Shown piece by piece: positions 47,738 to 48,047 of a DNA stretch of 64,000 nt (its first letter is position 1; each line of letters opens with the position of its first letter). This DNA comes from an uncultured Solirubrobacteraceae bacterium (GTDB lineage: Bacteria > Actinomycetota > Thermoleophilia > Solirubrobacterales > Solirubrobacteraceae). The translations under genes were made by a program, and so were the position numbers. The DNA lies in contig CAWDVD010000002.1 of the NCBI GenBank assembly GCA_963805745.1, positions 1,253,119 to 1,317,118 on the forward strand, given 5' to 3'. Under the pieces are notes generated by a model. That model was not told the origin of the DNA. It saw only the letters and a list, made by a program, of their open reading frames with translations, and did not search any database.

Positions 47738-47846
47738 GCCGGAAGGGTGGGCTCCGGCACTGCGAGCTCCGAGGTGGGCTCTCATCCCCGCATGTCATCT
47801 CCGTTCGCTAATCTGGCCAGACCAGAGAAAGGAGGTGGTCCAAACG

Positions 47847-47891
47847 TTGAGTGACAGTTCTTGCGGGACCCTGGAGGTGACCGGCCGTTAG
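47847..47891 (+). CDS. Putative 14-aa small peptide MSDSSCGTLEVTGR
   Basis: TTG start 9 nt after AAAGGAGGTG, with a TAG stop at 47889-47891. Confidence 0.35.
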   Translation: MSDSSCGTLEVTGR

Positions 47892-48006
47892 GTCGGGAGG
47901 CTGGACCGCCTAGCGGAATCCAACCCGGGACACCCCGAGACGACTGCCGGCCCTGGTCCCTCCGGCCTCGCCCGTCGCTCTCGGTCTTTCCAGTCAACAG
48001 CAGCTT

Positions 48007-48047
48007 GCGAAGGGCGCCGTCGTGCAGGCGCCCTTCGCTTTCTCTTT
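48007..48047 (+). terminator. Rho-independent terminator
   Basis: Perfect 12-bp stem GCGAAGGGCGCC/GGCGCCCTTCGC with an 8-nt loop, then TTTCTCTTT. Confidence 0.85.

Follow-up and report, generated by a model that had tools for sequence, protein, structure and literature searches.

An Ms_IGR-5-like RNA in a Solirubrobacteraceae bacterium, with a predicted pairing to the whole free 16S rRNA tail and a small reading frame woven into its fold

What kind of gene is a short stretch of DNA that matches the 3' end of 16S rRNA by complementarity over 17 nucleotides (nt) and then opens a reading frame of only 14 codons? Such a locus lies at positions 47809 to 48047 of the window analysed here, a stretch of 64,000 nt from an uncultured Solirubrobacteraceae bacterium (GenBank assembly GCA_963805745.1, contig CAWDVD010000002.1, positions 1,253,119 to 1,317,118 of the forward strand; coordinates below count from the first letter of the window). 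A preliminary description, made from the letters alone, took it for a candidate small RNA (sRNA) that binds or sequesters the 30S subunit, has a dual function or resembles 6S/Ms1 RNA. We are firm that this is a gene standing on its own, which specifies a folded RNA of about 227 nt between a transcription start (+1) near 47821 and the end of a terminator at 48047. Sequence comparison also identifies it firmly as a divergent orthologue of Ms_IGR-5 (Rfam RF02471) in a Solirubrobacterales-type actinobacterium. The best explanation of its features, to which we give a probability of about 0.6, is a ribosome-docking mini-mRNA of the Ms_IGR-5 family, in which engagement of the ribosome would set the conformation and turnover of the RNA. 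Two features are central to this question:

47826 to 47842, + strand: stretch complementary over 17 nt to the 3' tail of 16S rRNA (an extended Shine-Dalgarno, SD), AGAAAGGAGGTGGTCCA, from comparison with the 16S of the same genome
47847 to 47891, + strand: small open reading frame (sORF) of 14 codons, TTG at 47847 to TAG at 47889-47891, MSDSSCGTLEVTGR, from frame statistics

The single 16S gene detected in the source genome ends ...UGGAUCACCUCCUUUCU, which confirms the complementarity to the organism's own rRNA. Against this tail AGAAAGGAGGTGGTCCA forms 17 continuous pairs with one G-U, as had been claimed, and covers the whole free tail. The predicted duplex has -29.4 kcal/mol for the 17-nt complement versus -8.7 for GGAGG alone. 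Among 12,782 GGAGG sites in the 4.0-Mb assembly, 17 nt were reached solely here and in the antisense of the ribosomal DNA (rDNA), and the runner-up sites had 14 nt; therefore the match exceeds chance, and the statement that it goes far beyond an ordinary SD stands. For relatives, the motif AAGGAGGTG-N20-50-GGACNNNNGAGGTG-N9-TAR was scanned over 185,579 species genomes, which gave at least 120 loci. A set of 145 distinct 5' domains served as the homologue set for most counts, and a second filter on the 5' domains removed 0 sequences. The contiguous complement to the 16S tail measures 16-17 nt in 141 of these 145 domains. At complement positions outside the collection motif the homologues differ solely by changes that leave the pairing intact: positions 1, 3, 13 and 17 are A or G, opposite U, and positions 15 and 16 are C or U, opposite G. 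A few GGUGAUCC variants keep the pair with 16S and would break an internal GUCC:GGAC pair, which speaks for the 16S tail as the partner on which the SD's 3' extension is selected. On these base patterns, selection on the predicted 16S-tail pairing itself holds across the Actinomycetota relatives.

The sORF announced by the preliminary description is present, and its start codon is not part of the collection motif. In 117/145 homologues an ATG, GTG or TTG stands in frame with GAG-GUG; the remaining two frames have one in 59 and 58, and a further 12 homologues carry an in-frame CTG at the start place. The start position of the family lies 8-10 nt past RAGGAGGUG. In the class Actinomycetes the frame has 12 codons; in the types found in Thermoleophilia and Acidimicrobiia it has 14. 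From the start position to the stop, frame 0 contains no stop triplet (0/1891), while frames 1 and 2 contain 177 and 112. The stop itself was assessed in 35 distinct sequences obtained by BLAST or covariance model and thus unselected for a stop: all 35 have one five codons past GAG (TAG 31, TAA 3, TGA 1). The peptide behaves differently from the frame. The homologues encode 107 distinct peptides, with an N-terminal half that is free to vary, and the only residues that recur across the family, (G/R/W)-T-x-E-V, come from GGAC and GAGGUG, two elements that take part in RNA pairing. Synonymous codons are never used for the GAG and GUG codons, and codon x between Thr and Glu (R, C, L, S, T, P, H or E) covaries with the 5' end of the RNA. 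What is selected thus seems, from codon and frame patterns, to be a ribosome that starts, reads and stops at fixed places, and not the peptide itself.

An Rfam scan at gathering thresholds found nothing at the site. With the RF02471 model, positions 47821-47990 align collinearly, on one strand, to all 184 positions of the family with 27.3 bits (E 1e-4 to 2e-4). In a genome-wide RF02471 search the site was the best and only match (E = 3.9e-4), and the match is single-copy at the orthologous place in 25/25 genomes of the same genus. One same-genus genome contains a second, weaker RF02471-like match off the orthologous locus (L028, G005:C1:254904-255053; 22.3 bits), which may be a paralogue or chance. 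By BLASTN the 5' half is present in most genomes of the order, and the nearest sequences to the window carry Solirubrobacterales labels. The RF02471 scores step down gradually from Mycobacterium (176.5) through Micromonospora (98.5), Streptomyces (95.2), Cellulomonas (66.8), an Acidimicrobiales genome that has a window-type 5' domain (48.8, above the cut-off) and two metagenome-assembled genomes (MAGs; 30.6 and 29.8) to the window (27.3). This series together with the collinear full-length alignment therefore indicates that the window holds a divergent Ms_IGR-5 orthologue. A covariance model built from window-type sequences only aligned 69/71 loci of the class Actinomycetes over its full length, and since those loci were motif-selected, its score is not independent evidence.

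The likeness to Ms_IGR-5 runs through the whole RNA. A 5' A, the extended SD AAGGAGGUGGUCC, GGAC and GAGGUG follow in the same order, as do the stop at the base of a hairpin, a GAAUYCC bulge, CACC and a long hairpin with a GUCC loop; the pairings P0, HA, P2 and P3 described below hold in both groups, and both RNAs are free-standing, single-copy and found in the same host phylum. The window differs in its sORF of 14 codons, not 12, in a P0 of CCAG:CUGG, not CACG:CGUG, in a separate U-tract terminator and CUUUCCAG tail, and in neighbours of the gyrA/CAP-domain/HNH kind, not Rv0812/Rv0813c-like genes. The suggested checks in Rfam and for homologues thus recovered conserved homologues across Actinomycetota. 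As to whether the RNA falls into an already described Rfam family, in substance it does, as a divergent relative of RF02471, yet with a score below the cut-off.

How the sORF sits in the RNA was assessed by covariation in two alignments: A4, a clean alignment of 48 window-type sequences, and A5, in which Actinomycetes-class sequences were placed on the window-derived model. The features of the resulting fold are:

47822 to 47825, + strand: 5' strand of helix P0, CCAG, pairing with 47871-47874
47871 to 47874, + strand: 3' strand of helix P0, CUGG, within the sORF
47865 to 47870, + strand: pseudoknot strand GGGACC, within the sORF, pairing with GGUCCC at 47955-47960
47876 to 47882, + strand: 5' strand of long-range helix HA, GGUGACC, part of a second SD-like GGAGGUG, pairing with 47928-47934
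47928 to 47934, + strand: 3' strand of helix HA, GGACACC, with an internal anti-SD-like CACC
47885 to 47916, + strand: hairpin P2, with the final sense codons and the stop in its base, from covariation
47917 to 47924, + strand: conserved unpaired AAUCCAAC, the family motif GAAUYCC, near-invariant in alignments A3 and A4 and matching Rfam gAAUuCC
47935 to 47984, + strand: long hairpin P3, with outer stem 47935-39/47980-84, inner stem 47946-50/47962-66 and loop GGUCCC at 47955-47960
47986 to 47993, + strand: CUUUCCAG, a conserved, anti-SD-like 3' tail that separates P3 from the terminator

Taken jointly, the four elements P0, HA, P2 and P3 have 89% of their cells paired in A4, with 15 pairs changed on both sides; compensatory cells number 70 versus 27 in shuffles, and 0/500 shuffles match the observed alignment on any measure. 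In A5, 86% of cells are paired versus 72% when shuffled and 31-47% when slid, with compensatory changes in 19/27 pairs. P0 at its fixed offset has 93% of cells paired, versus 32-41% with the partner slid, and occurs in 14 distinct fully paired variants, including CACG/CGUG, CACA/UGUG, CCGA/UCGG, CUUC/GAAG and CGCU/AGCG; its pairing reaches 100% in A4 and 98.9% in A5. GGGACC:GGUCCC is itself invariant and so has no covariation of its own, with pairing of 96% in A4. Support for it comes from the positions that flank it, because these covary: the first is paired in 72% versus 44% shuffled (C-G, G-C, U-A, A-U and U-G are all seen), the second in 66% versus 42%, and the next positions outward are without covariation. 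A GUCC stands in a hairpin loop in 137/145 homologues, and we read GGGACC:GGUCCC as a pseudoknot of 5-6 bp between the sORF and the P3 loop. HA pairs in 93.5% of A4 and 96.8% of A5, with compensatory variants; a crude longest-complement search for HA gave no discrimination, as many sequences share GGUGGCUG. P2 pairs in 87.7% of A4, and in A5 both sides are changed in 6/8 of its pairs. In the inner stem of P3 both sides are changed in 5/5 pairs, with 90-92% of cells paired.

Of the helices listed in the preliminary description, the hairpin 47886-47915 corresponds to P2 and the helix 47865-70/47955-60 returns as the pseudoknot. Two others did not survive. The proposed closing helix 47819-28/47979-87 has only 61% of cells paired, and its 3' arm CUCGG pairs with CCGAG at 47935-39 instead, while the helix 47881-85/47946-50 competes with the inner stem of P3, whose five pairs all covary. 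The covariation fold corrects the minimum free energy (MFE) prediction and parts of the Rfam consensus: the Rfam SS_cons for Ms_IGR-5 pairs the SD GGUGGU with GCUGCC and is without the P0, HA and pseudoknot supported here. MFE folding of both strands gave modest z-scores of -2.8 and -3.3, and RNAalifold on a MAFFT alignment of 75 sequences gave almost no structure, with the variable hairpins misaligned. In some relatives (L015 in G020, L022 in G008, L099, L106 and several same-order loci, L058-L062) the P2 loop carries additional hairpins of 20-70 nt, which marks P2 as a site where expansion is tolerated. The pyrimidine tail (C)CUUUCCAG is common to Solirubrobacterales-type and Acidimicrobiia loci (L080, L093, L102, L110). 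Its sequence could pair with the GAAAGG of the SD, and the CCAG within it is the same as the 5' strand of P0, with invariant partners; the tail could serve as a cis anti-SD that occludes GAAAGG, or as a competitor of P0.

These elements suggest how such an RNA might work. Covariation pairs the 5' end with the sORF in P0, which is predicted to close a large loop that holds the 16S complement as well as the start codon, and what remains of the frame appears tied up in P0, in the pseudoknot, in HA and in the base of P2. We propose that the free 16S tail of a 30S subunit would zip onto the exposed extended SD, and that the high stability of the duplex, together with a weak start codon, would make initiation slow or weak. 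The ribosome would then read a frame whose peptide is not selected, and in doing so would have to open P0 and HA, the pseudoknot and also the base of P2; therefore ribosome engagement, by docking and passage, could set the conformation of the RNA and probably its turnover and lifetime, as the start-codon-dependent stability of rreB mRNA (see below) suggests. The RNA might in this way report on, or be controlled by, the availability of ribosomes.

Relatives provide the experimental background for this proposal. Ms_IGR-5 was reportedly found in Mycobacterium smegmatis by Li et al. in 2013, and IGR-5 is said to be the same as ncMSMEG15794c. IGR-5 of M. smegmatis has MSMEG_5794 and MSMEG_5795 on either side, is NAD-capped at its +1 A and was termed 'validated but yet uncharacterized' (bioRxiv 10.1101/2021.12.14.472595). 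RNA-seq has revealed Ms_IGR-5 in both S. lividans and S. avermitilis (PMC8079986, PMC8780764), and the RNA has ribosome footprints in M. abscessus and M. smegmatis (PMC4974804). No functional study turned up in literature searches on IGR-5 and its locus names. By analogy, the closest characterised RNA is rreB of Bradyrhizobium, a small mRNA of 165 nt that has 17 nt complementary to the 16S 3' end, and an sORF for 14 aa (PMC5711450). In sedimentation the rreB mRNA travels with 30S subunits; its translation is weak, and its stability rises when a stop replaces its start codon; its overproduction left growth unaffected and its function was called 'elusive' (PMC5711450). Thus, the part of the preliminary description that proposed ribosome binding receives indirect support only, from the footprints on Ms_IGR-5 (PMC4974804) and the association of the analogous rreB with 30S (PMC5711450).

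The window RNA and rreB/rreR are alike as stand-alone small mRNAs with their own promoter and terminator, a 16-17-nt complement to the entire 16S 3' tail, an sORF of 14-18 codons with a weak start codon, and an SD whose 3' part can enter a hairpin. They differ in that the complementarity of the rre RNAs enters the first base of GTG, whereas that of the window ends at 47842 and leaves a 4-nt spacer to the TTG at 47847. Also, the window sORF is woven into a pseudoknotted fold, its peptide varies beyond what RNA pairing demands, and the hosts belong to a different phylum: rreB analogues have been reported only in alpha-proteobacteria (Hahn et al., RNA Biol 2017, PMC5711450). Rfam CC2171 (RF01867) of Caulobacter starts ...GAAAGGAGGUGAUCCAGUG, and by its sequence this annotated Caulobacter sRNA is evidently an rre-type small mRNA. 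The window scores 14.3 bits against the CC2171 model (cut-off 75); only SD and terminator align, and no further likeness was detected. Window RNA and rre RNAs have a design in common, which could stem from either homology or convergence. It is a tentative and rather unlikely extension that Ms_IGR-5, the rre/CC2171 RNAs and look-alikes in MAGs labelled as other phyla (L097 and L105, see below) form one cross-phylum class, in which capture of the 16S tail and one ribosome passage switch a pseudoknotted RNA between two states. If true, such an RNA would count neither as a gene for a peptide nor as an sRNA of the classical base-pairing kind, and it would be a sensor of free ribosomes with an intact anti-SD tail, responding for example to 16S 3'-end damage or to ribosome maturation.

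The dual-function sRNAs SgrS/SgrT, RNAIII/hld and SR1/SR1P have defined targets for base pairing, and the functions of the peptides that they encode depend on sequence. The window RNA resembles them as a small structured RNA with a (here predicted) translated sORF, and differs from them in a peptide that is not conserved independently of the RNA. This difference also bears on the view that the locus is an ordinary small-protein gene, with the 14-aa peptide and its conserved C-terminal GTLEVxGR as the product and the long SD tuning its expression. Conservation of start, open frame and stop is what such a gene predicts, the peptide is similar within the clade, and the RreB and RreR peptides are likewise conserved within theirs (PMC5711450). 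However, the family-wide residues (G/R/W, T, E and V) are exactly those coded by GGAC and GAGGUG, the partners in pseudoknot, P0 and HA; GAG and GUG are never replaced by synonymous codons, the codon between varies in step with the 5' end, and the N-terminal half is variable among the 107 peptides. Synthetic RreB and RreR were moreover unstructured, and conditions thought to overproduce RreB gave no phenotype (PMC5711450). We therefore regard a small-protein gene as unlikely. Quite unlikely, too, is a purely non-coding, trans-acting base-pairing sRNA in which the SD-like stretch and the sORF are incidental, or serve as seed or structure. The family is catalogued as sRNA in Rfam, the unpaired conserved AAUCCAAC, CUUUCCAG and the loop GUCC could be seeds, and canonical starts are absent in part of the window's genus. 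Against this, in-frame starts outnumber those in each of the other frames two to one, stops in frame 0 are 0/1891 against 177 and 112, the stop changes only to other stop codons, and mycobacterial ribosomes leave footprints on the RNA (PMC4974804).

Two further explanations are very improbable. A 30S sponge or decoy that titrates ribosomes globally would suit the -29.4 kcal/mol of the predicted 16S-tail duplex and the finding of rreB in the ribosome fraction (PMC5711450), but the number of ribosomes far exceeds that of such an RNA, and growth did not respond to overproduced rreB (PMC5711450). The 30S-sequestering role offered in the preliminary description is thus unlikely as global sequestration. 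An RNA polymerase binder of the 6S/Ms1 type, which had also been offered, was rejected: Rfam scans of the site gave no 6S or Ms1 match, and the fold has several helices with a pseudoknot and is not a rod with a central bubble. A translated upstream ORF woven into alternative structures is the classic design of an attenuator, which would make the element a cis-acting leader, attenuator or riboswitch for a neighbouring gene, including read-through antisense into the convergent HNH gene; this we hold to be just as improbable as the sponge, and a cis-regulatory role was rejected. The strong terminator at 48007-48047 is followed by a convergent gene, with no co-oriented downstream gene in the unit; the neighbours differ by class (Rv0812/Rv0813c-like in Actinomycetes; gyrA, CAP-domain and HNH here), and in mycobacteria and Streptomyces the RNA is a discrete species (papers cited above).

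Several points weigh against the ribosome-docking mini-mRNA of the Ms_IGR-5 family. The score of 27.3 bits falls short of the gathering cut-off of 45. The loci L065-L184 were selected by motif (SD core, GGAC, GAGGTG and TAR), so the invariance of those letters is by construction; alignment A5 was fitted to the model, and the shuffle controls for pairing ignore phylogeny. The MFE fold of the window RNA (-106.5 kcal/mol) differs from the covariation fold (-85.8 kcal/mol, with the pseudoknot uncounted). An alternative hairpin, P1, pairs GGUCC on the SD side with GGACC in an invariant helix, and a test for flank covariation of P1 across the homologues found none; with this alternative, exposure of the 3' half of the SD in the loop is not proven. 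In the window's own genus the start is TTG in most species and TTA, CTT, CTC, TCT or ACG in about 40% (compared at 47847-47849 and the orthologous positions of L005, L011, L012, L015 and L023-L026), with the frame open and the SD invariant in all of them. This could imply either that near-cognate initiation is tolerated on a very long SD or that translation is dispensable in this lineage, and translation may be weak or dispensable there. The Ms_IGR-5-type family is widespread but patchy in the phylum: of 121 genomes sampled evenly from it, 17 contain the exact motif and 0 the pattern read backwards. Lastly, the step from ribosome engagement to a physiological output is speculation.

That the element forms a unit of its own is seen at its borders:

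47809 to 47814, + strand: -10 promoter hexamer TAATCT (TANNNT type), from comparison of homologues
47821, + strand: predicted transcription start, A, from the start of the Rfam alignment and base conservation
48007 to 48047, + strand: intrinsic terminator, a GC-rich 12-bp stem at 48007-48038 followed by the T-run UUUCUCUUU

The TAATCT box noticed in the preliminary description is kept as TANNNT, 5-8 nt upstream of the predicted +1, in 111/145 homologues versus 1/145 in a control window; a simple sigma-70 scan of the site, which requires a -35 box, called no promoter. The RNA is predicted to start at A47821, 5 bases before the 16S complement, because the Rfam alignment begins there, the position is A in 134/145 homologues and M. 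smegmatis IGR-5 has its +1 at an A. The strong terminator that had been described was also found, with its 12-bp stem and T-run, and relatives likewise carry a terminator hairpin. As to gene context, the + strand carries gyrA and a gene for a CAP-domain protein, the - strand genes for an HNH endonuclease and prephenate dehydratase. Convergent genes flank the unit, with the HNH gene converging on the terminator at 48007-48047, so that the -10 box, terminator and gene context agree with the earlier view of an independent unit between two convergent genes. The RNA is assigned to the + strand because G-U pairs, which would be A-C on the other strand, are frequent there in the covariation alignment. 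A minus-strand reading was rejected on this ground and because promoter and terminator both lie on the + strand. In Actinomycetes-class loci (e.g. L065 and L111) the RNA adjoins a convergent Rv0813c-like (FABP/nitrobindin-like) gene, near YgfZ-like and Fur-family genes. Clustering of the neighbouring genes found no partner gene common to all classes, and Rv0813c-like and YgfZ-like neighbours occur with the class Actinomycetes only.

Among the matches listed, nearly all belong to Actinomycetota, with Mycobacterium, Streptomyces, Micromonospora, Nocardioides, Rhodococcus, Cellulomonas and Kineococcus, and also Acidimicrobiia, Conexibacter, Thermoleophilaceae and Solirubrobacterales. The matches listed further include MAGs labelled Acidobacteria and Polarisedimenticolia (L097, L105), plus L173, with the same SD, GGAC and GAGGUG landmarks. 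Their frames have 15-19 codons and a GTG start 5 nt after the SD. These three loci may be cross-phylum members of the family or mislabelled bins.

The observation is real, and the RNA is conserved and of unusual design. Its kind is not new, as the family is already catalogued and the design principle has been published for another phylum. The window extends the Ms_IGR-5 family to a deep-branching class. The family includes Mycobacterium, Streptomyces, Micromonospora, Acidimicrobiia and Thermoleophilia, and its members are expressed and ribosome-bound where tested. What is added is phylum-wide evidence on what appears to be selected, and a fold based on covariation. From these follow testable constraints on any function of the family: that a 16-17-nt pairing with 16S is selected, that the act of translation and not the peptide is, and that the frame is interlocked with a pseudoknotted fold. 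The likeness to the rre small mRNAs suggests the same solution in two phyla; therefore the assays used for rreB, 30S co-sedimentation and start-codon-dependent stability, should be transferable to M. smegmatis or S. coelicolor.

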